Of a stretch of DNA of 64,000 nt, positions 13,169-28,036 are shown in pieces. Position 1 is the stretch's first letter. The number at the start of each line of letters is the position of its first letter. The notes beneath the pieces were generated by a model that was not told where the DNA came from, searched no databases, and worked only from the letters and a program-made list of their open reading frames with translations. A program made the translations under genes and the position numbers. Source of the stretch: Acidobacteriota bacterium. GTDB taxonomy: Bacteria > Acidobacteriota > UBA890 > WLXD01. The stretch lies in assembly GCA_965248695.1 (NCBI GenBank), contig CBDFKD010000002.1, positions 2,112,001-2,176,000 on the forward strand, given 5' to 3'.

Positions 13169-13414
13169 ATGCAATCGAACTGCACGCTCGCCGACCTGAT
13201 GCCCGGAGAGCGCGGCACCGTGCGCGACGTTTCGCATCAGCTTCCGGCTCTGGAGCGCCGACGGCTGCTCGAGCTCGGGTTCTACCCTGGCACGCCAGTA
13301 CTGGCGAAGATGGAAAGTCCTCTCGGCGACCCGGTGGCCTACGAGGTGCGCCAGATGACCGTGGCGCTGCGGCGTGAGCAGGCCCGCATGATCGAGGTGA
13401 ACCGTCTTGCCTGA
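13169..13414 (+). CDS. feoA: Ferrous iron transport protein A
   Basis: RRRLLELGFYPG...SPLGDPVAYEVR...VALRREQA SH3-like FeoA signature. Confidence 0.93.
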   Translation: MQSNCTLADLMPGERGTVRDVSHQLPALERRRLLELGFYPGTPVLAKMESPLGDPVAYEVRQMTVALRREQARMIEVNRLA

Positions 13415-15689
13415 ACAGAAGGCGGCACGCGCAATCGACTTCAACGTCGAGCAGACCGATGCCGCCTGCGAGGCCTGCCGCCTGTGCCAGGGACCGCAGC
13501 TGTGGGGACTGCAGACCGCCGAGTATGACTACCTCGTAGCGCTTGCAGGGTGCCCGAACGTCGGCAAGAGCACGGTTTTCAACGCCCTTACGGGACTTCG
13601 CCAGCACACCGGCAACTGGCCGGGCAAGACCGTGGCGCGCGCCGAAGGCAGCTACCGGCACGCCGATGCCACGTTCAAGCTCGTCGACCTTCCCGGCACC
13701 TACACATTGATCACCCCGCAGGCCGAGGAACAGGTGGCGCACGACTCGATCGTGTACGGCGCCGCCGACGTGACGGTGGTTGTCATCGACGCGACCCAGC
13801 TGGAACGCAACCTCAGCTTCGTGCTGCAGGTGCTCGAGGTGACCGATCGCGCCGTTGTCTGCTTGAACCTGGTCGACGAAGCTGTCCGGCACGGGGTGAA
13901 GATCGATACCGACGCGCTATCAAAGCGTCTCGGCGTCCCGGTCGTCGCCACGGCGGCGCGTTTCGGGCGCGGCATCGCCAAGCTCATCGATGCGATCGAG
14001 AGCGTCGCGCGTGACGGCCCCACGCGTAGCCCATATCACTTCACCCGTGCCGATCGCGAGCTAGACCAGTTGCTGTCGAAGGCTACCGCTGATATCGAGG
14101 CCGAGTATCCCGGCATCCCGGCGGCGCGCTGGATCGCACTTCGCTTGCTCGACGGTGACGGCCCGATGACCGAGGCAGTGCGCCAGGGGGATCTCGATCA
14201 GTTGTTGCCCGAGGAATCCGACGACCGGACCGGCTCCCGTTCCGGTGTCATTCAGTTGCAGCCCCCAGGTACCGGCCGCGCCGAGCGCGGCAAGCGGCTG
14301 TTGGAGCGCATCGGCACGCATGCGCGCGGCTCAACGAGCTTCTACGGCCGTGTGGTCGGGTCGCTGCACGGACGGGCAAGCGAGATCGCCACCGCCGTGT
14401 CGACCACGACCCGTATTCCCTGGCGCCTGGGATCCACCATCGACCGTCTAGTGACCAGCCGCTGGCTCGGCTTCCCGATGATGCTGACCATGCTGACGAT
14501 CGTCTTCTGGCTGACGATCTCCGGGGCCAACGTGCCGTCGGCGATGATTGCCTCGCTACTGCTCGAGGTCGTTCATCCGGCGCTCAAGTCACTCGCCGCG
14601 TCAGTGGGTCTGCCGTGGTGGCTCGATGGGCTGCTGCTGGACGGAGTCTATCTGTCCACCGCGTGGGTAATCAGCGTCATGCTGCCGCCGATGGCCATCT
14701 TCTTTCCGTTGTTTACGCTGCTAGAAGACCTGGGATACCTGGCCCGGGTGGCGTTCAACCTCGACAACCTCTTCAAGCGCGTCGGCGCGCACGGCAAGCA
14801 GGCCCTGACACTGAGCATGGGGTTCGGCTGCAACGCCGCTGGCGTCATCGCGACTCGCATCATCGACAGCCCGCGCGAACGCCTCATCGCCATCATTACC
14901 AACAATTTCGCACTCTGTAACGGCCGTTGGCCGACGCAGATTCTCATCGCCTCGATCTTCATCGGGGCGCTGGCACCTCCGGCGCTGGCCGGCTTCGTGT
15001 CGGCCGCGGCCGTCGTCGGAGTCGCGGTTCTCGGCATCGTGCTGACGTTCGCGGTGTCGTTGCTGCTCTCGAGGACAGTCTTGCAAGGCGAGGCCTCGAC
15101 CTTCAGCCTCGAGCTGCCCCCTTATCGACGCCCACGCTTCCTGGCAACGCTGTACACGTCGCTCATCGACCGGACGATCTTCGTTCTCTGGCGCGCCATC
15201 GTCTTCGCGGTTCCCGCCGGGGCAGCAATCTGGCTGTCGGCCAACCTGACCATCGGCGGAACGTCGATCGCGCAGCACCTGATCAGCGGCCTCGATCCGG
15301 TAGGCCTGTTCTTCGGTCTCAATGGCGTGATCCTGCTCGCCTACGTTCTCGCCATCCCCGCCAACGAGGTCGTGATTCCGACGATCTTGATGCTCACCGT
15401 GCTCACCGGCGGCGCGTTCGGAGTAGGCGGGGGCACCGGCGTCATCTTCGAGCTCGACTCGACGCGGGCGGTCGGCGAAGTGTTGATCGACAGCGGTGGC
15501 TGGACGCTCCTGACGGCGATCAACCTGATGCTCTTCTCCTTGCTCCACAATCCTTGCTCGACGACGATCTACACCATCTACAAGGAGACCGGCAGCGCTC
15601 GCTGGACGACGATCGCCACCGTGCTGCCGCTGGTCATGGGGTTCGCGACAACCTTCGTCGTCGCACAGGTGTGGCGCCTGCTGACCTAG
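13407..15689 (+). CDS. feoB: Ferrous iron transport protein B
   Basis: G1 GCPNVGKS, G2 NWPGKT, G3 DLPG, G4 NLVD; gate motifs LEDLGYLAR, GFGCNA, ELPPYR. Confidence 0.95.
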   Translation: MPEQKAARAIDFNVEQTDAACEACRLCQGPQLWGLQTAEYDYLVALAGCPNVGKSTVFNALTGLRQHTGNWPGKTVARAEGSYRHADATFKLVDLPGTYTLITPQAEEQVAHDSIVYGAADVTVVVIDATQLERNLSFVLQVLEVTDRAVVCLNLVDEAVRHGVKIDTDALSKRLGVPVVATAARFGRGIAKLIDAIESVARDGPTRSPYHFTRADRELDQLLSKATADIEAEYPGIPAARWIALRLLDGDGPMTEAVRQGDLDQLLPEESDDRTGSRSGVIQLQPPGTGRAERGKRLLERIGTHARGSTSFYGRVVGSLHGRASEIATAVSTTTRIPWRLGSTIDRLVTSRWLGFPMMLTMLTIVFWLTISGANVPSAMIASLLLEVVHPALKSLAASVGLPWWLDGLLLDGVYLSTAWVISVMLPPMAIFFPLFTLLEDLGYLARVAFNLDNLFKRVGAHGKQALTLSMGFGCNAAGVIATRIIDSPRERLIAIITNNFALCNGRWPTQILIASIFIGALAPPALAGFVSAAAVVGVAVLGIVLTFAVSLLLSRTVLQGEASTFSLELPPYRRPRFLATLYTSLIDRTIFVLWRAIVFAVPAGAAIWLSANLTIGGTSIAQHLISGLDPVGLFFGLNGVILLAYVLAIPANEVVIPTILMLTVLTGGAFGVGGGTGVIFELDSTRAVGEVLIDSGGWTLLTAINLMLFSLLHNPCSTTIYTIYKETGSARWTTIATVLPLVMGFATTFVVAQVWRLLT

Positions 15690-16341: not shown

Positions 16342-17265
16342 ATGAACCGAACCACACGCCGGCGCTTTCTCAGTCGATCCGCGGCGCTAGGCGCGGCAGC
16401 GACGTTCCCTAGCCTGTCGGCTCGCGGCGGGCAGACCGATCCGTGGTTCAGCATCTCGCTGGCCGAGTGGTCCCAGCACCGCGCCCTGCAGGCGGGTCAG
16501 CTGGACCATCTCGATTTCATCACCGGCGCGCGGACGGCCTACGGCGTCGACGCCGTCGAGTACGTCAACGTGTTCTTCTTCGAGCGCGCCCGTGATGCGG
16601 CCTACCTTCGCGAGATGCAAGCGAGATGCGATGGCGAGGGCGTGCGTAGCTTGCTGGTCATGTGCGACAACGAGGGTCGGCTTGGTGATCCGGACGCGGC
16701 CACTCGCACCGCAGCGATCGAGAACCACCACAAGTGGGTCGAAGCGGCGGCATTTCTCGGTTGTCACAGCGTCCGGGTGAACGCCGCGTCTGAAGGCACC
16801 TGGGAGGAGCAGAGTCGTCTGGCGGCCGATGGGTTGCGACGCCTGGCGACCTTCGCTTCAGACCACGGCTTGAGCGTGCTAGTCGAGAATCACGGTGGTC
16901 TGTCGAGCAACGGCAAGTGGCTCGCCGAGACGATTCGTCGGGGCGACCATCCTGGACTCGGCGCGCTGCCCGACTTCGGCAACTTCCGCATCGCCGGCGA
17001 TGACTGGTACGACTTTTACCTCGGCGTCGAGGAGCTCATGCCCATGGCGCGCGCGGTAAGCGCCAAGTCGCACGATTTCGGTCCCGATGGCAACGAGGTG
17101 CAGCTCGACTACGCTCGACTGCTCCGCATCGTCGGCGCCGCCGGCTACCGCGGCTACATCGGCATCGAGTACGAGGGTGAGCGACTGTCGGAGCCCGACG
17201 GCATCCGTGCCACCAAGGCGCTGCTGGAGCGGGTCCGCGACGAGCTCGCGGGCCAGATGTCCTGA
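16342..17265 (+). CDS. Tat-exported sugar phosphate isomerase/epimerase (AP_endonuc_2 TIM barrel)
   Basis: TRRRFL Tat motif; VENHGG, LPDFGNF, SAKSHDF, IGIEYEG metal-binding motifs. Confidence 0.9.
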   Translation: MNRTTRRRFLSRSAALGAAATFPSLSARGGQTDPWFSISLAEWSQHRALQAGQLDHLDFITGARTAYGVDAVEYVNVFFFERARDAAYLREMQARCDGEGVRSLLVMCDNEGRLGDPDAATRTAAIENHHKWVEAAAFLGCHSVRVNAASEGTWEEQSRLAADGLRRLATFASDHGLSVLVENHGGLSSNGKWLAETIRRGDHPGLGALPDFGNFRIAGDDWYDFYLGVEELMPMARAVSAKSHDFGPDGNEVQLDYARLLRIVGAAGYRGYIGIEYEGERLSEPDGIRATKALLERVRDELAGQMS

Positions 17266-17635: not shown

Positions 17636-18370
17636 TCAAGGCGCCGGTGTGAGGTCCTTGGCGCGGAGGTTGCGGAACCAGACCGAGCTGTCGTGGTCGT
17701 GGTTCTGCAGCCCGACATAGCCGGAGGCAGCAAAATCGGCCACCTTGCCGCGCGGCTCGGCATCCCAGTCGACCACCGTCTCGCCATTGATCTCGACGGT
17801 GATGTGGTCGCCGACGAACGTCACGCGCATTTGGTTCCACTCACCCGTAGGTCGCGACGCCAGACGCGACGCCGCCTCCGCGTCGTAGACCGCGCCAGTC
17901 TGGTGAACTCCCTCCTCGGAGGCATCGTGGATCTGTATCTCGAACGAGTGGTAGATGTAGTCGTCACTGCTCGGAGCGCCGGGAACGCGTACGAACACCC
18001 CTGAGTTCGATTCCAGCTTGCTGGTCTTGAACTCGAGCTCGAGCGCGAAATCGGAGAACTCGCGCGCGCTGTACCACATCAGCCCCATGCCTCCGTGGGA
18101 TTCGAGCACGCCGGTTTCGGGGTCGAGCACGAAGTACCCGGGTCCGTAGTGGTTCCAGCCGCCCTTGTGGAAGGTACCGTCAGGTCGCTGCTGGATCAGG
18201 CCTTCGTATCCTTCATCGCTCACCGGCATCGACCTCTCCAGCGCGGGCGGGCTCGGGCGCTCCTCGCCACCGGCCGCCAGGGAACGCATCGCGCCCACTC
18301 CGAGCGCGGCGGCGGCGCCGATGCTGAACACGATCGCGGGTAACGGCAGTCGTCTTACACCTTGCGTCAT
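17636..18370 (-). CDS. DUF1080 (3-keto-disaccharide hydrolase family) protein, exported
   Basis: FSDFALELEFK, SNSGVFVR, FEIQI, GEWNQM, GYVGLQNHD, VWFRNL motifs; signal-like N-terminus. Confidence 0.9.
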   Translation of the reverse strand: MTQGVRRLPLPAIVFSIGAAAALGVGAMRSLAAGGEERPSPPALERSMPVSDEGYEGLIQQRPDGTFHKGGWNHYGPGYFVLDPETGVLESHGGMGLMWYSAREFSDFALELEFKTSKLESNSGVFVRVPGAPSSDDYIYHSFEIQIHDASEEGVHQTGAVYDAEAASRLASRPTGEWNQMRVTFVGDHITVEINGETVVDWDAEPRGKVADFAASGYVGLQNHDHDSSVWFRNLRAKDLTPAP

Positions 18371-18425: not shown

Positions 18426-19676
18426 CTAGTTGCTCTTGGGGTTCCACTCGCCGCGGGCAACGGCGGGAATGAACGTTGCGAGGTCGGGGGGCGGGAACTC
18501 GATCGCCGTACCGGTCTCGGCGCTCATGTACCCGGTCATCAGCAGTTCGGTAACGTTGAGGCCGTCGTCGAACGTCTCGCTCGGTCGGCGGCCCTCGAGA
18601 AAGCAGCGCGTCATGTGTCGGTTCTCGCCGACGTAGCCGTATTCGCTTTCTTCATCCGCCACCACCGGCATCTGGCCCACCTCTGCGTTCTGCTTCTCGA
18701 CCAGATCCTCGCCCTCGGCACCGACCACGTGGCGAGAGAAGAAGAGCTTCGGGCCCATGTCGAGTGAGTTCAGCGACATCGAGTACTCGGGGCCGAGCAG
18801 CTCCATGGTCAGCCGCAGACCGGCGCCTACGAAGCACCACGAGGTCGTCGTCTCGACGATGCGTGGATTGTCGTCCGGGTCGCGGTATTCGACCAGCGAA
18901 CGCGCGAAATCCTCCGACGGCCGCTGCGTGTAGTCGTTGCCACCATCGCTGGCGCGGGCGAGCTGCTCGGCATAGCGAGGTTGCTGCCACTTGAGACAGT
19001 TCGTATATGCAGTGACCCGCACCGGCGTCAACGCCTCGCGCGGCGCTTCCGGCGGTGTCAGCAGGAACCGCGCCGTCTCCACCGAGTGGCACATCATGTC
19101 GTTCATCACGCCGCCGCCTTGAAGCTCCCCGGACCAGAACCAGGGCATGTGCGGGCCGGAGTGCTCTTCGGCAGCGCGCGCCAGATACGGCGGCCCGGTC
19201 AGCGCCGCACCTCGCGCCCAGGCGATCTGCTTGCCGCGCACCACGCTCGGGGTGAACAGTTGGTTCTCGAGATAGCCGTCGAGCAGCTCGGCGTCGTGCG
19301 CCAGCTCGACCATGCGCTTCGCCTCGGCGACGTTTCGTCCAAGCGGCTTCTCGCAGGCGACGCCGACGAGCTCACCATGGCCCGATTTCAGCGCGTTGAC
19401 GATCTCTTCCATGACCTCGATACGAGTGAAATTCGGCGAACAGATCCATACCGCGTCGATGGCAGGATCGGCGACCATCTCGGTGATCGAGCCGAAGGCC
19501 TTCGCCTCGCCGACGCGCAGCTCGCGCGCCAGCGCCGCCGCCGCCGTGGCGCTCTCGCGGCTTCGACTGACGACCCCGAGGACATCGGCGTCGCGGACGC
19601 CGACAAAGGATCGAATGTGAAAGCAGCCGACGAAGCCGCCGCCGATGATGCCGATACCGAGTCTTCGCTGCGTCAT
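18426..19676 (-). CDS. Gfo/Idh/MocA family oxidoreductase (cytoplasmic)
   Basis: GIIGGGFVG, CEKPL, GGGVMNDMMCH. Confidence 0.9.
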   Translation of the reverse strand: MTQRRLGIGIIGGGFVGCFHIRSFVGVRDADVLGVVSRSRESATAAAALARELRVGEAKAFGSITEMVADPAIDAVWICSPNFTRIEVMEEIVNALKSGHGELVGVACEKPLGRNVAEAKRMVELAHDAELLDGYLENQLFTPSVVRGKQIAWARGAALTGPPYLARAAEEHSGPHMPWFWSGELQGGGVMNDMMCHSVETARFLLTPPEAPREALTPVRVTAYTNCLKWQQPRYAEQLARASDGGNDYTQRPSEDFARSLVEYRDPDDNPRIVETTTSWCFVGAGLRLTMELLGPEYSMSLNSLDMGPKLFFSRHVVGAEGEDLVEKQNAEVGQMPVVADEESEYGYVGENRHMTRCFLEGRRPSETFDDGLNVTELLMTGYMSAETGTAIEFPPPDLATFIPAVARGEWNPKSN

Positions 19677-19697: not shown

Positions 19698-20909
19698 TCA
19701 GGCCACGGCCGGTCCGGCGGCGCGTTGATCCTTGAAGAACAGCAAATAGGCCACAGCGCATAGCACTGTGATGGCGCAGGGTACCAGGAACACAGTGGTC
19801 CAATCGGTTACGCCGTCCACGGTGAATCGGCTTTGCACATAGCCGGCAAAGATGCTGCCAACGAAGCTGCCAACGCCGAGTGTGACGATCGCAATCAGGC
19901 TCTGGGCTGAAGCGCGGATGTCCTTCGGCGCCACCGAGTCGACATAGATGAACGCCGCAACAAAGAAGAAGACGAAGCAGAATCCGTGCAGCGTAAGCGA
20001 CGCCACCACGAGCCACCACGGCGAGCCGATGGCGAAGACCACATAGCGTATTGGCCAAGCGATGACTCCGAGGGCCAGTGTCGAACGCATTCCGTATCGT
20101 TTCAGGAACCACGACAGCATCACCGCCAGCACGAAGATCTCGGCGATCTGGGCCACCGTCATCACCGCCGGGACACGCGCCGGCGAAATTCCGATGATCG
20201 ACGACTGGAGATACGGCGCAGTCAGCACATAGTAGAACTGCAACTCGGTGGCAACGACGAACGAGATCAACATGAAGATGGCGAAGTCGCGATCCCGAAG
20301 CATGCGCAGGGCCTCCAGAAACGCCCAGGGCTTGCGGTCGTCTCGTCGCGGCGGCGTGTGTGGCAAGAGAAAAGACTGCAATCCCATTAGCACGGAGAAA
20401 CCGCCGGCTAGCAGGAACATGTCGCCACCCATCGCCTGTCCATTGGCACCGGCGTTGGCGCGCCAGCCGGCCAGCGCCCAGCCGGCCGCGATCCAGCCGA
20501 TCGTTCCCCAGACGCGAATCCTTCCGAAACCTTCCTCGGAGTTGTCCAGGTTGCTCATGGCGATCGAGTTGGTGAGCGCCAACGTCGGCGCGTACAGCAG
20601 GCAGTACAGGAACATGACGAGCGCCAGCGAGCGGTAGTCCGTTAACGTCGAGGCATAGAGCAACACGCCCCCACCGGCCAGCTGAAGCGCCGCGACGGTG
20701 TGCTCGGAGGCGAAGTACCGGTCCGCGATCTGGCCACCGATGAACGGCGCGATGATGGTGGCGAGCGGCAGTAGCGAGTAGATGAACCCGACCTGCGTCC
20801 CTTCGAAGCTCAGGTCGCCAAGGAGATACGCCGACAGCACCGGGGCCCAGGCGCCCCAGATGGCGTACTGCAGGAACATCATCAGGCCGAGCTGGAACCT
20901 GCCGCTCAT
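19698..20909 (-). CDS. MFS transporter, nucleoside:H+ symporter (NupG/YegT-like)
   Basis: MMFLQYAIWGAW, GQIADRYF, IRVWGTIGWI, LHGFCF, RASAQSL. Confidence 0.88.
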   Translation of the reverse strand: MSGRFQLGLMMFLQYAIWGAWAPVLSAYLLGDLSFEGTQVGFIYSLLPLATIIAPFIGGQIADRYFASEHTVAALQLAGGGVLLYASTLTDYRSLALVMFLYCLLYAPTLALTNSIAMSNLDNSEEGFGRIRVWGTIGWIAAGWALAGWRANAGANGQAMGGDMFLLAGGFSVLMGLQSFLLPHTPPRRDDRKPWAFLEALRMLRDRDFAIFMLISFVVATELQFYYVLTAPYLQSSIIGISPARVPAVMTVAQIAEIFVLAVMLSWFLKRYGMRSTLALGVIAWPIRYVVFAIGSPWWLVVASLTLHGFCFVFFFVAAFIYVDSVAPKDIRASAQSLIAIVTLGVGSFVGSIFAGYVQSRFTVDGVTDWTTVFLVPCAITVLCAVAYLLFFKDQRAAGPAVA

Positions 20910-21130
20910 GTGCTCTCGACTAGCCCCGAGGCGTAGACAGTTCCGTCCGTTGACAACGCGCTCAGACACGCACACGCGCAGCGATCAGGCGCGACACACG
21001 GGCAAGCCAGGCGAACGCCGGAGCATAGCAGCCGGCACGGAACTGCTCAAAGCCGCTGGCCTCTGGCGTAGCCGCCTGGCCGTGATTAGGATCCGTCACT
21101 CCCGCTCAGAAAGCTCTAGGAGGACGGCTG

Positions 21131-22198
21131 ATGGTTCGGTCCTGCGGCTACCTTGGCTACGTCGTTTCAGTCCTCGTCGCTGTCAGCACACTGAACGGCG
21201 CGGCGCCGCGACAAGCTGCGGCGCAGGAGGAGAGTCGCGGCGATCTCGTTTTCGCGTCGTCAACGATCACCTATCTGATTGGTGGCGGCGGTGACACACG
21301 GCTGGACGCGCCGGAGGTCGGTGTCAACGGCGTCTATGACGCGGCGATGAAGTACGAACTCAAGCGCGCCACGCTGGTCGGAAGGATGCTGATAACTGAC
21401 TTGGCCTTCGGAACCAACTCCCCAGGCTCGATTGATGCCGAATGGCGTCGGTCGGTAAAGGGCAAGCCGGCCAGGAAACTGGCGCGAGCCAGCGAGCCGC
21501 TCGGTGGCAACGATCGCTTTGTACGGTTCTTCGTCGACAAGCCCGCCCGGAAGCTGAAGAACGCCGTGTTGTCGGCGAATTACAAGGCCCGCAACGGACG
21601 CTATGTTGCGCCGTCCATGGTGCAGGTTGCTTCTGCGGTAGATCTCCGCGCATCGCTGGGACGCATAGGCAACGGGCCGAACGACGCCGGTGTCAAACTT
21701 GGAGACTACGACCAAGAGGGACTGCGGCTGTTGTCGAAGTCGGCCAACACGCAGGCGGTGTCGGCGTCGGCCAGCTACGAGCTTCAACCGGATGATTCCG
21801 GCGAGATCTTCTTCGCCCCTCCGGGCCCGATAGAGGCCGGCTACGAGCTGCTAGATGCGGCGGCGGAATTGGTGGGGACAACCCAGAAAGTCTGTATCAG
21901 GTTCCGTTTGTCCAACTCCACGCCGGGTAAGCCCTTCTTGGTGTCCGAGGCCTTGTTTTCAACCGTCCCTTCCGGGGGCGCAGGGACTCGCGTGCCCTTC
22001 GTGAAGTTCAAGAACAAGAAAGTCGGGGAGGACCTCGAGAAAACAATCAAACTCGACCCGCAGAACTTTCTGAACACCGTGCGAGACGGCGAGTTCGACC
22101 TCCTCATCAAAGCCGCCAACGACCCGGGCACACAGCTCTTCGTCGAAATGGAAATCACCGTTCCGGGAAACACCGCCGAAGGTAGGTTTGCGCGCTGA
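21131..22198 (+). CDS. Secreted hypothetical protein
   Basis: AGGAGG RBS; signal peptide; beta-rich, Lys-patch-containing mature region; no recognised motif. Confidence 0.65.
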   Translation: MVRSCGYLGYVVSVLVAVSTLNGAAPRQAAAQEESRGDLVFASSTITYLIGGGGDTRLDAPEVGVNGVYDAAMKYELKRATLVGRMLITDLAFGTNSPGSIDAEWRRSVKGKPARKLARASEPLGGNDRFVRFFVDKPARKLKNAVLSANYKARNGRYVAPSMVQVASAVDLRASLGRIGNGPNDAGVKLGDYDQEGLRLLSKSANTQAVSASASYELQPDDSGEIFFAPPGPIEAGYELLDAAAELVGTTQKVCIRFRLSNSTPGKPFLVSEALFSTVPSGGAGTRVPFVKFKNKKVGEDLEKTIKLDPQNFLNTVRDGEFDLLIKAANDPGTQLFVEMEITVPGNTAEGRFAR

Positions 22199-22276
22199 CG
22201 GAACTACGGGCTGGTCGGGCCTTGCGCCTACCCTGGTGCTTTCTGCGACCCCGAGCTCAGCGAAGCCTGGCGGCGG

Positions 22277-23893
22277 CTAAACGATCCTCTGCTGCACCGG
22301 GTCCCACTCGACCTTGCGACCGAGTTGGTACGACTTCGTCGCCATATGGCAGGTGATCGCTTCCTCCAGGCCACGATCGATGCTGCAGCTCGGCTCGCCA
22401 CCATGACGAACGGTGTCGAGCCAGTCCTTGATATGTAGCCAGTGCGTGCTCACCCGCCGGCCGCCTTGATAGGTGAATAGAAGCCCGCGGCTGGCGAAGT
22501 ACTCCTCGGTGGCCGTGGTGACGGCATCCAGCCCCTTGAAGCCGGGGCGATACGTCAGCAGCGGGCGATCGACATCGACCACCTGGCGCTCGATCAGATC
22601 CGCGTAGCGCGTTGACTGCGGCTCGGCGATCACGCGCACGCCGCTGCCCACTTCCATCGCCGCATCGTGCCCCATGAACACTTTGCCACGTCCGCGACCG
22701 CTGGCCAGCGTGGCGCTGTACACCAGGGTCAGATCGCGATCCGGATACTCGTACACGACCTGAAATACGTCGGGCACGTCGCGGCCGTCCTTGAAGAAGT
22801 AGATGCCTCCGGAGGCCACCGCCGACTTGGGAATGCCAAGGTTCATGATCTGGTTGAGGGCATCGTACTCGTGCGACAGCAGGTCGCCCGCCAGCCCGGT
22901 GCCGTAGTCGTACCAGCAACGCCAGCGAAAGAACCGCTCGAGGTTGAACGGCACTTGGTTGGCGGCGTTGCCCTGGAACTGTTCCCAGTCGATGGTGTGC
23001 GGGTTCCCTTCCGGGTGAATGTCCCACACCCAGGCCCCCCACGGATCGTTGCGGTTAGTGGTCGTCTCCACCAGGGTGATCTTGCCGAGGATCTCCTTCT
23101 CGATGATCTCGCGAGCTTTCTCGTGGCTCTCGAGCTGACGGTTCTGATGCCCGAGCTGGAACTTGATGCCCGACGACTTGACCGCCTCGACCATCGGCAG
23201 CACCTCTTCCTCGGCGCGGGTCATCGCCTTCTCGCAGTACACGTGCTTGCCGGCCGCGGCGGCGGCGATGGTCATGGGCGCGTGCCAGTGATCCGGCGTG
23301 GCGATCAGCACCGCGTCGACATCGGCCGAGTTGAGTAGCTCCTCGTAGTGTCGGAACCGGTACGCCGGTCGCGATCCCGGGGCGTTGGCCGGACGCGTTT
23401 CGTTGGCCGACGTTGCGATGGCGCGCTCGGCGCGAACGTCGAACACGTCACAGACACCGGTGAAAGCGACGTTGAGGTCGCCCTGCTGCATGAACTCGTC
23501 GAGCCGCGTGTTGCGCGGATCCTGGTCGGCGGCGAGGCGCCATTCTTCGGTGACCTCAGGGTGTGCGAAGCCAGCGCCGCGCATGAGCGCCTCACCCTCG
23601 CCACCGAAGCCGATGATCCCGAGGTTGATGCGCTCGGCGGGTGGTCGGCTCTGTGCGTGATCGATGATCGCCGGAGCATCGCCGGTTACACCGAGCTCGG
23701 CCAGTACCTGGTCGCGGCGCTCATCGGCCAACGCCTTCTTGCGCCATGCGCCCCAGCCGAGGGTGCCCAGTACGGGCAGCGACGCCAGCCCTTTGAAAAG
23801 GTCGCGCCGATCGATCGACTTGCCTTCGTTTCCGGTCTTGCCGAGTGTACCGCCCGTTTGCTGCGGCGCCCGGTCGTCGTCATCCGTGCTCAT
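22277..23893 (-). CDS. Gfo/Idh/MocA oxidoreductase with Tat-like N-terminal anchor and candidate FMN-attachment motif
   Basis: DRRDLFKGL plus hydrophobic stretch; GIIGFGGEG, IATPDHWH, YCEKAM, WRCWYDYGTGLAGDL; C-terminal DAVTTAT. Confidence 0.9.
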   Translation of the reverse strand: MSTDDDDRAPQQTGGTLGKTGNEGKSIDRRDLFKGLASLPVLGTLGWGAWRKKALADERRDQVLAELGVTGDAPAIIDHAQSRPPAERINLGIIGFGGEGEALMRGAGFAHPEVTEEWRLAADQDPRNTRLDEFMQQGDLNVAFTGVCDVFDVRAERAIATSANETRPANAPGSRPAYRFRHYEELLNSADVDAVLIATPDHWHAPMTIAAAAAGKHVYCEKAMTRAEEEVLPMVEAVKSSGIKFQLGHQNRQLESHEKAREIIEKEILGKITLVETTTNRNDPWGAWVWDIHPEGNPHTIDWEQFQGNAANQVPFNLERFFRWRCWYDYGTGLAGDLLSHEYDALNQIMNLGIPKSAVASGGIYFFKDGRDVPDVFQVVYEYPDRDLTLVYSATLASGRGRGKVFMGHDAAMEVGSGVRVIAEPQSTRYADLIERQVVDVDRPLLTYRPGFKGLDAVTTATEEYFASRGLLFTYQGGRRVSTHWLHIKDWLDTVRHGGEPSCSIDRGLEEAITCHMATKSYQLGRKVEWDPVQQRIV

Positions 23894-24381
23894 CCCGACT
23901 TCCCCTCGCGCCGCAGCAGTCTGCCGAGGCCCACAACGTCATCGGTAGGAAAGGCCCTGATGACCATCAGGGCCGCGATCTCGATCAGGGTCTTGTTGAC
24001 GATCACATACGACCCCTCGGCCGGGATCGCCGTCTCCAGCCCCGGCAGGGGCGGGTTGGCCAGATAGTAGAGCCCCAGCAGGATCATCCCCAGCAACGCT
24101 GCCAGTCGTGATCGCAGGCCCGCCACCAGCGCCAGGCCGATGAGCGTCAGGCCCCACTTGTTCAGCAGGTCGACCAACTGCAGGCGCCCAGGGTCGGACA
24201 CGAGCCACAGGAACCAGCTGGCAAACGGCCCCTGCGCTTCGGACAGAAAACCGGCTGAAGTCCAGTAAGAGTTGGTCAGCTTGGCGATGCCCTCGTAGAG
24301 CAGGTGCCAGCCAACCAGCATTCGCAAGGCTACCAGGGCCAGACTCTGCCCACTCCGGAACTGCGTAGCTGCAGCGGTCAT
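23890..24381 (-). CDS. DoxX/DoxD-like membrane protein
   Basis: LRMLVGWHLLYEGIAK, SAGFL, GLALVAGLRSRLA, IVNKTLIE; ATGA overlaps with both neighbours. Confidence 0.85.
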   Translation of the reverse strand: MTAAATQFRSGQSLALVALRMLVGWHLLYEGIAKLTNSYWTSAGFLSEAQGPFASWFLWLVSDPGRLQLVDLLNKWGLTLIGLALVAGLRSRLAALLGMILLGLYYLANPPLPGLETAIPAEGSYVIVNKTLIEIAALMVIRAFPTDDVVGLGRLLRREGKSG

Positions 24382-25436
24382 TGTTCTCCAGCGTGGGTAG
24401 CGATCCCAGGCTGACTCGACCACCTGGGCGATTTGAAGATGGAGCCGTCAGCGGCGACCGTCAGGCAAGCGGCGCCGGGTATCGACGCCACCAGGCGTGT
24501 TCGGTGTTCCGGCCCGGCCACGAACGCGGCCGTGGCCAACGCGTCGGCGGTCATCGCGGTGGCCGCCCGTACGGTCACGCCGCTGCAGTGCCCCGGCGAT
24601 CCACCGGTGGAGTCGACGATGTGGTGCAGCGTGCGATCGCGATCGAAGTAGATCTCGTAGCTTCCCGATGTGGCAACTGCGCCGTCGTGCAGCTGCAGGA
24701 TGTCGGGATACTTGCCGGCCTTGTCTGGATCCTGAACCGCGACGGTCCAGGGCGCCCGCCCGTCGCGACCTCCAGCGGTCCGGATGTCGCCACCGGCGTT
24801 GATCAGGTAGCTATCGGCGCCACGCGCTTCGAGCGCGTGGGCCATGCGGTCGACGATGAAGCCCTTCGCCATTCCGTCGAGCGTCACGGCGGTGCGCTCT
24901 CCTTGAAATCGGATATGGCGTCCGTCGATGTCCACGCCGGCGGCTTCGACACGAGCCCGGGCATCGACCAGCTCACTGGCGTTCGGAAGCCCGCTGGCTC
25001 CGGACTCGCGTTGCTGGCGCAGCAGATCCACCACCGGCGCCACCGCGATGTCGAACGCTCCGGCGGTCAGCAGCTCGAACCCGCGCGCTCGTCGGAGCAG
25101 GTACACCAATTCGTCGGGGGCGCGTCGCAACGTCCCGATGTCGTTGAGCACCCCCATCGCCGTCGCCGGCTCGTGCCGATTGAGGATGTCTATGAGGCGA
25201 TCCATCTCGGCCAGGGCGCCGCCAATCGCATCCTCGGCCAGCCCGCGCGACGCGTGCAGGGCGGACAACGAGACCACCGTCCCCATCGCCGGCACCGACT
25301 GAGACACCCGCCAGCCGGCGTCGACTGCCTCGGCCTCGGTGGTGAGCGGTCCCTCAATGCACTCGAAGCCCATCTCGAGCAAGCCAGCAAGCTTGCGAGC
25401 ACGGCGTTGCGAGTCGGTTTCGACGACGTCTGGCAC
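24378..25436 (-). CDS. apbE: FAD:protein FMN transferase (ApbE family), no lipoprotein signal
   Basis: AMGT, GAFDIAV, LDGMAKGFIVD, INAGGDI, AVATSGSYE, HHIVD, ADALATA. Confidence 0.92.
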   Translation of the reverse strand: MPDVVETDSQRRARKLAGLLEMGFECIEGPLTTEAEAVDAGWRVSQSVPAMGTVVSLSALHASRGLAEDAIGGALAEMDRLIDILNRHEPATAMGVLNDIGTLRRAPDELVYLLRRARGFELLTAGAFDIAVAPVVDLLRQQRESGASGLPNASELVDARARVEAAGVDIDGRHIRFQGERTAVTLDGMAKGFIVDRMAHALEARGADSYLINAGGDIRTAGGRDGRAPWTVAVQDPDKAGKYPDILQLHDGAVATSGSYEIYFDRDRTLHHIVDSTGGSPGHCSGVTVRAATAMTADALATAAFVAGPEHRTRLVASIPGAACLTVAADGSIFKSPRWSSQPGIATHAGEQ

Positions 25437-25588
25437 GATCGTAAGCAGGCCCGGTAGAGAGTTCGGGCGGGAGAATAGCAGCTGCGTATCACCGCCACAA
25501 AAGGAAACCGGACGCCCGTGACCCTCGTCCTACCTGGAAACAAGGCTTCTGTCCGGGTTCGCGCTGGCTGTAGAGCGAGAGGTGTGTC

Positions 25589-28036
25589 GTGGGTGATTTC
25601 GCACGAGATCTGAGGTTCGGTGTCCGCCAGCTGGTCAACAGCCCAGGGTTCACATTGGCCGCGGTGCTGTGCCTGGCGCTCGGGATCGGGGCGAACTCGG
25701 CAGCGTTCAGCTTCGTGCGCGGGTTTCTGTACCAGACGGCCCCAATTCGCGACCCCGAGAGCCTCGTGCGCATGTACCTCAACTACAACAACGGCCTCGG
25801 GTTCGGTTCCTGGTCGTACCCCGACATGGTCGACATGCGGGCCGCCACCACCGACGTGTTCGACGCGGTCCTGGCCGACACCATCGGCACGTTCAGCTTC
25901 AGCGCCGGTGGCCAGAGCCGCCGCATCTTCGGCACCTACGTCACCGCAAACCACTTCGAGGCCCTCGGCGTAGAACCGCAACTCGGGCGCGGCTTCCTGC
26001 CCGAGGAAGATCAAACCGAGGGTACCCATCCGGTGGCCGTCCTCAATCATCGGTTCTGGAGCGACGCCTTCGGCGCCGATCCGGAAGTCCTCGGGCACAC
26101 CATGCTGCTGAATGGCCGGGAGATAACCGTAGTCGGGGTAGCTCCAGCCAACTACGATGGCAACAACACCGCCATGCGTACGGAGCTTTGGATCCCGTTC
26201 AGCATGGAGCCGGCTCTGACTCCTTCGGGCTCCAACCTCGACCGTCGCGGCAACCACTGGATCCAATCGGCCACCGGCCGTCTGAGACCCGGTGTCACGT
26301 CGCAGCAAGCCAAGGCGGCGCTTGACGCCCTGTACGTGCGCCTGGAAGAACTGTATCCAGACACCAACACCGGTATCACGATCGATTTCTATCCGGAGAG
26401 CAAGGCATCGTTGCACCCCGCGGTCCGGGGTGGCTTCGTCGCCATGCTCTCGTTGCTGTCCGGCATCGTGGGCCTGGTGTTGCTGTTGGCGTGCGCCAAC
26501 GTCGCCGGCCTCCTGATCGCCAGGTCGACAGCGCGGACGCGAGAAGTGGGCATCCGCCTAGCCCTGGGAGCGGGACGCGGCCGCCTGATCCGCCAGCTGC
26601 TGACCGAGAGCGCCGTACTGTCGGTGCTGGGCGGTGGGCTCGGGGTACTCCTTGGCGTGGCGCTGATCGGCCTGGTGAAGTCGTTTCAGCCGCCGACGGA
26701 GCTGCCGCTTCGAATCGACGTCGGGATGGACGGCGCCGTGCTGGCGTTTACCTTCCTGGTCACCGCGGCTACCGGGCTGGTCTTCGGAATGGCACCGGCG
26801 ATCACCGCCACGCGCCAGGATCTGGTGGCGGCGCTCAAGGATGGCGCCCCCGGTTCGGGAGGGCACTCGACCCGTCTACGCGACGCGCTCGTCGTCGGCC
26901 AGGTGTCGTTGTGCCTGGTGTTGCTCGTTGCCGCCGGGATGGTTCTGCGCAGCCTGCAGCAGGTGCAGCGCCTGGATCTCGGCTTCAACCCGGACGGCCT
27001 GATCCACGCGAGCATCGATCCGGCGCTACAGGGATACCCGCTTGAGGAGCTCGACGCTTTCTTTGATGAGCTGCGAACGAACCTACTAGCCCAGCCCGGC
27101 ATCCAGTCGGTGGGTTACTCGGGAACGACGCCACTGTCGCTGATGAACAACCAAACGGGCGTGCTGCCCGAGGGATACGAGGTACCGGAAGGGCAGGATT
27201 GGCCTAGCCTCGACTACACCGAGGTGGATCACGGCTACTTCGCCGCCATGGGGATACCGATCCTGCGCGGCCGCTCATTCGCCGCCGCCGACGACCGCGA
27301 CGCAGCGCCCGTTGCGATCGTCAACCAGGCCTTCGCGGATCGTTTCTGGCCCGACGACAACCCGATCGGCAAGACAATCCGAAGCGGCGGAGAGGAGCGC
27401 GACGTTGTCGGCGTCGTGCCTACGGGCAAGTACTTCAGCCTCGGCGAGGATCCCAAGCCCTTCCACTACGGCGCCCGAGCCCAGCGGTACCGTGGCCAGC
27501 AGACCTTTGTCCACGTACGCACCGCCGGTGAACCCGCTGCGGCGCTCGAAACGGTGCGGCGGGCCATCCAGCAACGCGATCCGACCATGCCGGTTTCCGA
27601 CCTGAACACCGGGCACGGCGCCCTGGGTCTGGCCTTCTTGCCAGCCCATCTCGCCGCCGTCGTGGTGTCGGCGTTCGCCATTCTCGCTTTGTTGCTGGCA
27701 TCCGTCGGGCTATACGGCGTGATCTCGTTCAGCGTCGCACAGGGGATCCACGAGATCGGCGTCCGCATGGCGGTCGGCGCCCGGTCCGGCGACGTGGTTC
27801 GAACCGTAATGGTCCGCGGCGCACGATTGACGCTGATCGGGTTGGGGATTGGCTTGGGTGGCGGCCTGATGTTGTCGCGCGCTGCTGCCAACGTGCTGTA
27901 CGGGGTGAGCGCCACCGATCCGGCCGCCTACGCCGTAGGGGTGCTGGTTCTGAGCGCGGCGGCGGTCGCGGCGAGCTTCGTCCCGGCTCTGCGAGCGACG
28001 CGGATCGACCCGCTGGTGGCATTGCGCACCGACTAG
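25589..28036 (+). CDS. ADOP-family duplicated orphan ABC permease
   Basis: DLRFGVRQL...LALGIGAN, LLLACANVAGLL, EVGIRLALGA, EIGVRMAVGA, RATRIDPLVALR; no ATPase gene adjacent. Confidence 0.92.
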   Translation: MGDFARDLRFGVRQLVNSPGFTLAAVLCLALGIGANSAAFSFVRGFLYQTAPIRDPESLVRMYLNYNNGLGFGSWSYPDMVDMRAATTDVFDAVLADTIGTFSFSAGGQSRRIFGTYVTANHFEALGVEPQLGRGFLPEEDQTEGTHPVAVLNHRFWSDAFGADPEVLGHTMLLNGREITVVGVAPANYDGNNTAMRTELWIPFSMEPALTPSGSNLDRRGNHWIQSATGRLRPGVTSQQAKAALDALYVRLEELYPDTNTGITIDFYPESKASLHPAVRGGFVAMLSLLSGIVGLVLLLACANVAGLLIARSTARTREVGIRLALGAGRGRLIRQLLTESAVLSVLGGGLGVLLGVALIGLVKSFQPPTELPLRIDVGMDGAVLAFTFLVTAATGLVFGMAPAITATRQDLVAALKDGAPGSGGHSTRLRDALVVGQVSLCLVLLVAAGMVLRSLQQVQRLDLGFNPDGLIHASIDPALQGYPLEELDAFFDELRTNLLAQPGIQSVGYSGTTPLSLMNNQTGVLPEGYEVPEGQDWPSLDYTEVDHGYFAAMGIPILRGRSFAAADDRDAAPVAIVNQAFADRFWPDDNPIGKTIRSGGEERDVVGVVPTGKYFSLGEDPKPFHYGARAQRYRGQQTFVHVRTAGEPAAALETVRRAIQQRDPTMPVSDLNTGHGALGLAFLPAHLAAVVVSAFAILALLLASVGLYGVISFSVAQGIHEIGVRMAVGARSGDVVRTVMVRGARLTLIGLGIGLGGGLMLSRAAANVLYGVSATDPAAYAVGVLVLSAAAVAASFVPALRATRIDPLVALRTD

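Follow-up and report, generated by a model that had tools for sequence, protein, structure and literature searches.

A three-gene operon was analyzed in a 64,000-nucleotide stretch of DNA from an Acidobacteriota bacterium (GenBank assembly GCA_965248695.1, contig CBDFKD010000002.1, positions 2,112,001 to 2,176,000 of the forward strand; this whole stretch is called the window). The operon lies at positions 22277 to 25436 on the minus strand and codes for an ApbE-family flavin transferase, a DoxX-family membrane protein and a dehydrogenase of the Gfo/Idh/MocA family, named here apbE, doxX and gfo. We read it as a membrane-bound, periplasm-facing sugar dehydrogenase with DoxX as its partner, in which ApbE would attach flavin mononucleotide (FMN) to threonine 462 (T462) of Gfo and the electrons would pass to quinone. 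The probability of this reading was put at roughly 0.55.

The three genes stand head to tail and are joined by two ATGA overlaps. At the apbE/doxX junction (caATGAcc, 24381-24378), the stop codon of apbE overlaps the ATG of doxX. At the doxX/gfo junction (ggATGAgc, 23893-23890), the doxX stop codon likewise overlaps the start ATG of gfo. The two overlaps were read directly in the sequence, which confirmed the coupling described in the first-pass annotation, a set of notes made by a model from the letters alone. The apbE gene (24378..25436, minus strand) has a GTG start and codes for a 352-amino-acid member of the flavin adenine dinucleotide (FAD):protein FMN transferase family, with 210.9 bits for PF02424 (ApbE; cut-off 25.6). 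The doxX gene (23890..24381, minus strand) codes for 163 amino acids from its ATG, and its 22.2 bits for PF07681 (DoxX) lie below the cut-off of 23.6. The gfo gene (22277..23893, minus strand) codes for a 538-amino-acid dehydrogenase with a family-specific C-terminal part; it scored 50.5 bits for PF01408 (GFO_IDH_MocA; cut-off 24) and 33.7 bits for PF22725 (cut-off 27). A promoter and terminator scan of positions 21900-25800 found no promoter-like sequence and four terminator-like sequences (1.9 expected), none of them at the operon ends.

The Gfo protein was modeled with AlphaFold from a 71-sequence alignment, and the mean predicted local distance difference test (pLDDT) value was 82.8. The model matched DgpA1 (9m3d) with Z 34.8 and a root-mean-square deviation of 2.5 Å over 329 aligned residues. 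Other matches were 1,5-anhydrofructose reductase (2glx, Z 34.8), a glycoside hydrolase dependent on nicotinamide adenine dinucleotide (NAD; 8qc8, Z 34.6), glucose-fructose oxidoreductase (GFOR; 1h6d, Z 32.4) and glucuronide 3-dehydrogenase (8tdi, Z 31.4). The modeled fold is the two-domain Gfo/Idh/MocA fold. Residues G95, G97, G100, E221, K222, D337 and H341 were invariant in the 71 Gfo sequences, and D149 was nearly so. We take the three glycines to be the dinucleotide loop, D149 to be the acidic residue after strand 2, K222 to be the E-K-P-like lysine, and D337 and H341 to be the Asp/His pair; their roles in binding NAD or its phosphate, NAD(P), and in catalysis are predicted. Since the NAD(P)-loop and catalytic-type residues are kept, Gfo appears to be a functional NAD(P) dehydrogenase. 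Among named NCBIfam models, BT_2158_fam (NF058561) scored best, with 111.3 bits (cut-off 750) and coverage of residues 177-387 only. The C-terminal 150 residues of Gfo, which include the candidate site described below, cannot be aligned to BT_2158. By sequence comparison, the operon Gfo belongs to a separate subfamily that has no name yet. In the databases, more than 6,000 proteins match it at E ≤0.001, and this set includes distant paralogues without the module. In one genome of the same genus (locus L098; G118:C15:1853102-1854671), gfo is split into overlapping frames that cover residues 1-296 and 283-523, owing either to a frameshift or to faulty assembly; the apbE and doxX of this locus are intact.

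The Gfo N-terminus reads ...SIDRRDLFKGLASLPVLGTLGWGAWRKK, and R29 and R30 are encoded at 23809-23807 and 23806-23804. Residues 26-50 (23744..23818, minus strand) form a predicted signal or signal-anchor of the twin-arginine translocation (Tat) system: D-R-R-D-L-F-K is followed by the 16-residue hydrophobic stretch GLASLPVLGTLGWGAW and then by RKK. The twin-arginine-like N-terminus noted at first is therefore present, and R29 and R30 were invariant among the 71 sequences, with K34 and L36 conserved in at least 90%. No A-x-A cleavage site was evident in this N-terminus by inspection, and the segment of twin arginine (RR) plus helix is retained inside natural DoxX-Gfo fusions. Gfo is probably exported by Tat and stays attached via the uncleaved twin-arginine helix. 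The Tat system exports folded, cofactor-loaded proteins.

The candidate ApbE flavinylation site DAVTTAT covers residues 456-462 of Gfo (22508..22528, minus strand), and T462 is the predicted FMN-bearing residue. The codons gat gcc gtc acc acg gcc acc were read from 22528 to 22508, as located in the first-pass annotation. The site was compared across 80 homologous loci from a genome collection (44-74% identity), which came from Acidobacteria-labelled bacteria, Bacteroidales, Cyclobacteriaceae, Flavobacteriaceae and others. The position of the site, D-x-x-[T/S/A]-[S/T/G]-A-[T/S], was occupied in 80/80 loci. Position 1 was D in all 80. Position 2 was A in 65, G in 14 and T in 1, and position 3 was V in 57, I in 15 and F in 8. 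Position 4 was T in 47, S in 22 and A in 11, and position 5 was S in 65, T in 11 and G in 4. Position 6 was A in 79 and P in 1, and position 7 was T in 78 and S in 2. D456 was thus invariant and T462 was 97% conserved; the mean top-residue frequency was 0.69. In the AlphaFold model, pLDDT was below 50 at residues 453-461, and a helix (461-468) begins directly after. The motif lies in a low-confidence stretch before a helix and is therefore not predicted to be buried. The first-pass annotation had named a motif that is not conserved or is buried as evidence against flavinylation; what was found is a site kept in every locus and placed in a low-confidence loop. A structure-atlas search with Gfo residues 420-480 gave scores of at most 0.82, within the chance range.

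The site was then set against the presence of doxX in 117 Gfo-like open reading frames (ORFs) from 95 loci. It was present in 81 of the 82 Gfo ORFs with doxX upstream, and in 0 of the 25 paralogous ORFs or fragments without doxX. In the 82nd doxX-linked ORF, which is broken, tblastn shows the site. The ORF filter mis-scored another ten ORFs with the motif, and doxX is present upstream of them in the locus maps. The 25 motif-less paralogues include true BT_2158-family genes that stand right after doxX-gfo in Bacteroidales. The expectation that the motif would be limited to homologues beside apbE and doxX was therefore borne out for doxX.

One match to the motif, taken alone, is no rarity in the window genome. 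Across its 56,416 stop-to-stop frames, the tighter pattern D[AG].[ST][GST]A[ST] matched 37 times, almost always in a non-coding frame. This would be a ground for coincidence, that is, for a standard NAD-dependent dehydrogenase, exported by Tat, whose position beside an unrelated apbE and doxX is accidental. The match in gfo is more than chance because of its conservation and its gene context. The two ATGA overlaps, the gene order kept in 14/15 relatives, the adjacency of doxX in 79/80 loci across phyla and the natural fusions leave coincidence scarcely credible. Other motif-bearing ORFs of the genome, none of them beside apbE, were a 546-amino-acid ORF with AGDGTTTATV, which we take to be chaperonin-like, and ORFs with DAGSGAT and DAGTGAT. 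By eye, the long ORF with DAGSGAT looks like an amidohydrolase, and the ORF with DAGTGAT appears to be secreted.

The DoxX protein of the window has about four hydrophobic helices and a basic C-terminus by inspection, which would agree with a membrane topology that places the Gfo domain, by way of the RR helix, in the periplasm. All 37 aligned orthologues match PF07681 at E ≤0.01 (best 1.9e-9), 19 match MauE and 9 match DoxD. The doxX gene stands directly upstream of gfo in 79 of the 80 loci, and the sequence of the exception begins inside gfo. Four natural fusions of the order DoxX - RR helix - Gfo were found, all with DAVTSAT. DoxX itself was considered as the flavinylated protein and rejected: it has no motif, and orthologues carry N, T, H or A in place of its best candidate serine (S124). 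A complex prediction for Gfo 25-538 and DoxX with NAD and FMN gave an ipSAE of 0.00 twice, and as controls were not run this value speaks neither for nor against binding.

Residues R20, W25, H26, E30, K34, D71, E122, Y125, N129-K130 and E134 of DoxX are invariant or nearly so in the 37 orthologues and lie in or near predicted helices. These residues bear on the role of DoxX. If T462 were flavinylated and DoxX were an anchor or assembly factor, the electrons would go to a soluble carrier, to oxygen or to a second sugar. The quinone interaction of DoxX is indeed inferred in the literature, where the family is called 'poorly characterized' (PMC10084136). However, the invariant or nearly invariant charged and aromatic residues exceed the needs of a passive anchor, Gfo already owns the RR helix for anchoring, and two architectures combine the motif with DoxX. 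A purely anchoring or assembling DoxX therefore appears improbable.

The second architecture is a family of 116 proteins of 288-579 amino acids (P0123-P0241; loci L108-L111), each with a DoxX domain, an RR anchor and an unrelated C-terminal domain. The DoxX domain is 44-58% identical to the window DoxX, and the C-terminal domain, of about 290 amino acids, has no Pfam match on record. A [D/N/H]-x-x-[S/T]-[S/G]-A-[T/S] site was found behind the anchor in 98/116 proteins, about 35 residues after the RR. Position 5 of this site was S in 50, G in 46 and T in 2. Canonical SGAT or TGAT was present in 38/98 sites, or in 46/98 with SGAS and TGAS included, and the remaining 18 proteins mostly have Pro where Ala is expected. 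As S and G alternate in this DoxX-linked family, Ser and the canonical Gly are interchangeable at position 5. As a like site occurs in two DoxX-linked architectures, the site goes with DoxX and not with one catalytic fold. Judged from the sequences, nothing speaks more strongly than this second family against taking the Gfo loop for a purely structural feature. On contig C54 of genome G059, an apbE gene lies 58 bp from a second-family gene, on the opposite strand.

Several observations weigh against T462 as the attachment point. The published ApbE motif is D-x-x-[S/T]-G-A-[S/T] (PMC12052999). The window site agrees with it at D456, T459, A461 and T462, and has T460 where the published motif has Gly. 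The strict motif was found in just 4/80 loci, and in a model substrate the change of this Gly to Ala cut flavinylation to about 50% (PMC12052999). When S or T is also allowed at position 5, the motif is present in 68/80 loci. Ala stands at position 4 in 11/80 loci and Pro at position 6 in 1/80. Among the 120 closest database proteins, 103 match the first motif pattern used and the other 17 do not. The apbE gene is adjacent in just 2/80 of the genome-collection loci, and most Bacteroidota loci are without a nearby apbE; the part of the original expectation that tied the motif to a neighboring apbE did not hold. ApbE was present somewhere in all 50 of the other module genomes tested (15/15, 5/5 and 30/30), and since most Bacteroidota likely have ApbE anyway, the 35/35 presence there discriminates little.

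A sister clade adds to these points. The phylum sample consisted of 201 genomes of the phylum of the window, a denominator that includes two unpublished genomes (G049 and G152). No conclusion here depends on these two, and an apbE next to doxX in G049 was left out of account. In this sample, apbE-doxX-gfo' operons were found in at least six genomes (G148, G033, G180, G100, G190 and G136), and a doxX/gfo' pair was found in G178 (loci L121, L122, L123, L124, L128, L129 and L130). The gfo' product has about 428 amino acids and an RR N-terminus. No [ST][GST]A[ST] was found anywhere in 7/7 gfo' sequences, and the aligned position shows S-x-S-R-x-R-D-A-A-G and then a variable Ser/Thr/Gly stretch. 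No consistent small motif-bearing ORF was found near the gfo' operons. In the single-contig genomes G148 and G190, the operon ApbE is the sole ApbE of the genome, and FMN_bind was not found in either. Several ApbEs of the gfo' operons start with an RR motif and have little or no hydrophobic stretch. As these operons keep apbE without the motif, association with ApbE does not depend on the motif, and there is less confidence in T462 as the attachment point. As they keep the trio, the functional link between ApbE and DoxX-Gfo is strengthened. On these comparisons, the triad of ApbE, DoxX and Gfo predates the motif and is more widespread, and in the gfo' operons ApbE would either use a non-canonical site or serve the complex in another way.

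These data bear on the alternative that the DAVT[S/T]AT loop is not flavinylated at all. The loop would then be a structural or DoxX-docking element, and ApbE would use a non-canonical site or supply non-covalent FMN by FAD hydrolysis. The gfo' operons, with sole ApbEs in G148 and G190, and the absence of Gly at position 5 in 76/80 loci speak for it. A DoxX-docking loop would likewise be conserved only in DoxX-linked proteins, and in Treponema pallidum an enzyme of the ApbE family is known to have FAD pyrophosphatase activity (PMC4436053). However, the residue pattern is the one a transferase motif predicts, with D invariant, a hydroxyl residue at position 7 in 80/80 loci, A at position 6 in 79/80 and a small S, T or G at position 5. 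The like site in a different DoxX architecture is also hard to explain by a fold-specific interface. We consider a loop without flavin unlikely.

The operon ApbE aligned over its catalytic core to Vibrio cholerae ApbE (6nxi), T. pallidum Ftp (4ifu) and TM1553 (1vrm), and the core motifs HHIVD, TADALAT, ATSGSYE and NAGGD are kept. The His of HHIVD is the general base in ApbE (PMC12052999). The operon ApbE is a member of the FMN transferase family, and transfer activity is predicted. Its N-terminus, MPDVVETDSQRRARKLAGLLEMGFECIEG..., has neither a hydrophobic signal stretch nor a lipobox by inspection, which agrees with the first description of an ApbE without lipoprotein or Sec signal. The GTG start gives the longest possible apbE ORF, and no upstream leader is therefore available. 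The N-terminus was tried as a Tat signal and rejected, as RR is not conserved in the orthologues and no hydrophobic stretch follows it.

The long Gfo was found in 16 of the 201 genomes, with the window genome included, and is almost confined to the order of the window (family f1, 7/8; family f2, 7/8; one other). The apbE-doxX-gfo order was kept in 14/15 relatives, in which Gfo identity falls as low as 57-63%. The exception (G177) has doxX-gfo and a lone generic ApbE on another contig. A loss of apbE synteny among relatives, which the first-pass annotation had listed as counter-evidence, did not occur in this lineage. None of the 14 ApbE orthologues has a hydrophobic leader by inspection, and all share L-L-x-[ML]-G-F-[EK], seen in the window protein as the conserved N-terminal element LLEMGFE (residues 19-25; 25362..25382, minus strand; 14 orthologues compared). 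In the 201-genome sample, ApbE orthologues of at least 229 bits, aligned from residues 3-14, were found only in the 14 operon relatives and the window genome; the next best match had 143.9 bits. At locus L034, an unrelated lipoprotein-type ApbE occupies the same operon position. As that ApbE is unrelated to the window protein and yet stands in the same place, it counts as an independent association of apbE with the operon.

The window genome is 96% complete and has two ApbEs. The second (G000:C2:219920-220765; L081 1423-2487, minus strand) is of the lipoprotein type (VLTIACGAVSD, lipobox LTIAC) and lies directly beside genes that resemble nuoI and nuoH. It might act on exported Gfo as well. 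Alternative clients were searched in the window genome: no FMN_bind and no DUF2271 were found. For NqrB/RnfD, the best score was 21.1 bits against a cut-off of 27.7, and that protein shows no [ST]GA[ST] by eye and is absent from the D[AG].[ST][GST]A[ST] list. The genome search for DUF3570 gave no match, and it is uninformative as its control matched in no genome.

Cytoplasmic flavinylation before Tat export, as first proposed, was supported in part. It fits the signal-less ApbE clade of this lineage. It is not general: the nine ApbEs examined in five Bacteroidota module genomes all have hydrophobic N-termini (9/9), 8 of them with Cys, and cytoplasmic flavinylation therefore cannot be a general rule. 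Flavinylation might also be periplasmic in the window lineage, carried out by the lipoprotein ApbE, with the operon ApbE acting as a Tat-substrate chaperone or being exported piggy-back. The lipobox ApbE without a known client in the genome, the secreted type of all Bacteroidota ApbEs examined, and the doxX-gfo of G177 with just a generic ApbE would suit this arrangement. However, the operon ApbE keeps its catalytic-core motifs, and its clade is found only with the operon. Tat is, as stated above, a route for folded proteins already loaded with cofactor. Cytoplasmic ApbEs that act on cytoplasmic clients are also documented (PMC12052999). A periplasmic route in this lineage was judged very improbable.

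The preferred reading can be laid out as a series of predicted steps. The operon would encode two subunits, Gfo and an obligatory four-helix DoxX, together with the maturation enzyme ApbE. In the window lineage, the dedicated signal-less ApbE would load FMN in the cytoplasm, by a phosphoester in the flexible loop D456-A-V-T-T-A-T462, and Tat export would follow. In Bacteroidota, a secreted housekeeping ApbE would load FMN after export. Gfo would oxidize a sugar with its bound NAD(P), and a glycoside or a 3-keto-sugar is the most likely type of substrate. The T462-tethered FMN would be placed to take hydride from the enzyme-bound NAD(P)H. The electrons would then go to quinone at or through DoxX, and sugar oxidation would feed the respiratory chain.

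The operon was compared with known systems. BT2158 and the BT_2158 family share with the operon Gfo the Gfo/Idh/MocA fold, a twin-arginine N-terminus, a presumably tightly bound NAD(P) and the same kinds of neighbors. The BT_2158 relatives 8tdf, 8tdh and 8tdi were the best PDB sequence match of the operon Gfo. Where BT_2158-family genes occur in loci of the module, they lack both doxX and the motif, unlike the operon Gfo. The GFOR of Zymomonas mobilis is a soluble enzyme that uses a second sugar to regenerate its cofactor, and it is not known to have a DoxX partner, an ApbE or a flavinylation-like site. GFOR resembles the operon Gfo as a periplasmic Gfo/Idh/MocA enzyme that is Tat-exported with a bound nicotinamide cofactor (PMC8121099). 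The re-oxidation of NAD(P)H was left open for BT2158 (PMC8121099).

Known ApbE clients, namely FMN_bind (NqrC, RnfG and others), NqrB/RnfD, DUF2271 and DUF3570, have a short D-x-x-[S/T]-x-A-[T/S] site like that of Gfo. Clients in 'orphan apbE' clusters also have a nearby apbE and an extracytosolic location, as here (PMC8238504). The host fold differs, being an NAD-dependent Rossmann dehydrogenase here, and position 5 is S or T and not the G of known clients. In Klebsiella pneumoniae, a signal-less ApbE flavinylates a soluble fumarate reductase in the cytoplasm (PMC12052999). The Klebsiella client stays in the cytoplasm, whereas Gfo carries a Tat motif, so that flavinylation would precede export. 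DoxX/DoxD-family four-helix proteins are the small membrane subunits of two dehydrogenases with quinone-involving chemistry, the hydroxyhydroquinone dehydrogenase BtdLS of Aromatoleum anaerobium, with BtdL as its large subunit, and the thiosulfate:quinone oxidoreductase DoxDA of Acidianus (PMC10084136). Unlike in the present operon, no ApbE or flavinylation is described for BtdLS and DoxDA in the available part of that paper (PMC10084136).

Genes downstream of the operon in the window suggest a 3-keto-glycoside pathway. The nearest is a transporter of the major facilitator superfamily (MFS), of the nucleoside:H+ symporter type (19698..20975, minus strand; PF03825, 348.8 bits). A second Gfo/Idh/MocA dehydrogenase of 416 amino acids, with no signal and no motif, lies at 18426..19676 (minus strand; PF01408, 65.6 bits). 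A protein of the 3-keto-disaccharide hydrolase family (DUF1080) with a hydrophobic N-terminus lies at 17636..18370 (minus strand; PF06439, 126.1 bits). A xylose-isomerase-like TIM barrel with the twin-arginine N-terminus TRRRFLSRS lies at 16342..17265 (plus strand; PF01261, 94.7 bits). The MFS, Gfo paralogue and DUF1080 families recur after gfo in locus L001, and the kinds of protein near gfo are those of BT2156-BT2159 of Bacteroides thetaiotaomicron. Given these 3-keto-glycoside-type neighbors, the enzyme is thought to oxidize a glycoside or a related sugar in the periplasm. The electron acceptor of the Tat-exported Gfo enzyme BT2158 was called 'as yet unidentified' (PMC8121099).

In nine Bacteroidales loci (L005, L008, L009, L011, L012, L018, L020, L022 and L023), a Tat-type Gfo paralogue stands directly after doxX-gfo. 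The L005 paralogue is a true BT_2158-family glycoside 3-dehydrogenase, with 908.1 bits. In those Bacteroidales, the DoxX-linked Gfo with the motif probably works in the same pathway as the soluble enzyme without it.

The literature was searched for earlier descriptions. A term search of the available text of three flavinylation papers (PMC8238504, PMC12052999 and PMC11334425) found no mention of Gfo, MocA or DoxX; the supplementary tables of PMC8238504 lay outside this search. No paper joining 'DoxX' with 'Gfo Idh MocA' and no description of the module were found in the literature search. The 2021 ApbE survey dropped signal-less ApbE genes and required a signal in ApbE, FMN_bind, DUF2271 or DUF3570 (PMC8238504). 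An operon of this type would therefore have been removed by its signal-peptide filter. The Gfo of the operon is a candidate for a new class of ApbE clients, and the operon is a candidate for a new periplasmic dehydrogenase architecture.

Periplasmic NAD-dependent Gfo/Idh/MocA enzymes work without a free NAD pool, and the re-oxidation of their cofactor is an open point in the 3-keto-glycoside pathway of gut and soil bacteria. If the preferred reading is true, a tethered FMN that feeds a quinone site of DoxX would be one direct answer, and a normally soluble NAD enzyme would become a respiratory sugar:quinone oxidoreductase. Sugar electrons would have a new respiratory entry in Bacteroidota and in Acidobacteria- and Gemmatimonadota-labelled bacteria. 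A Rossmann-fold dehydrogenase would join the ApbE clients, and the accepted motif would come to include S or T as its fifth residue. DoxX, a poorly understood family, would be given a concrete biochemical role.

A wider proposal is put forward tentatively, and we hold it to be somewhat doubtful as a whole. DoxX proteins of this type may be the quinone-reducing membrane subunits of extracytosolic dehydrogenases that form a widespread class not yet described and are wired to the membrane by ApbE-attached FMN, with the Gfo member holding both a tightly bound NAD(P) and a tethered FMN. The cytoplasmic ApbE with LLxMGFE may couple flavinylation to Tat export as a cofactor checkpoint, like the chaperones of other Tat redox enzymes.

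Other genes of the window were recorded around the operon. A 355-amino-acid ORF with a signal-like N-terminus (21131-22198, plus strand) is convergent to gfo; it had no Pfam or NCBIfam match and is missing at the corresponding position in L001. Further downstream, a FeoB ferrous iron transporter (13407-15689, plus strand) has no evident link to the operon. An 815-amino-acid duplicated permease of the MacB_PCD/FtsX type (25589-28036, plus strand), also with no evident operon link, is divergent from apbE.

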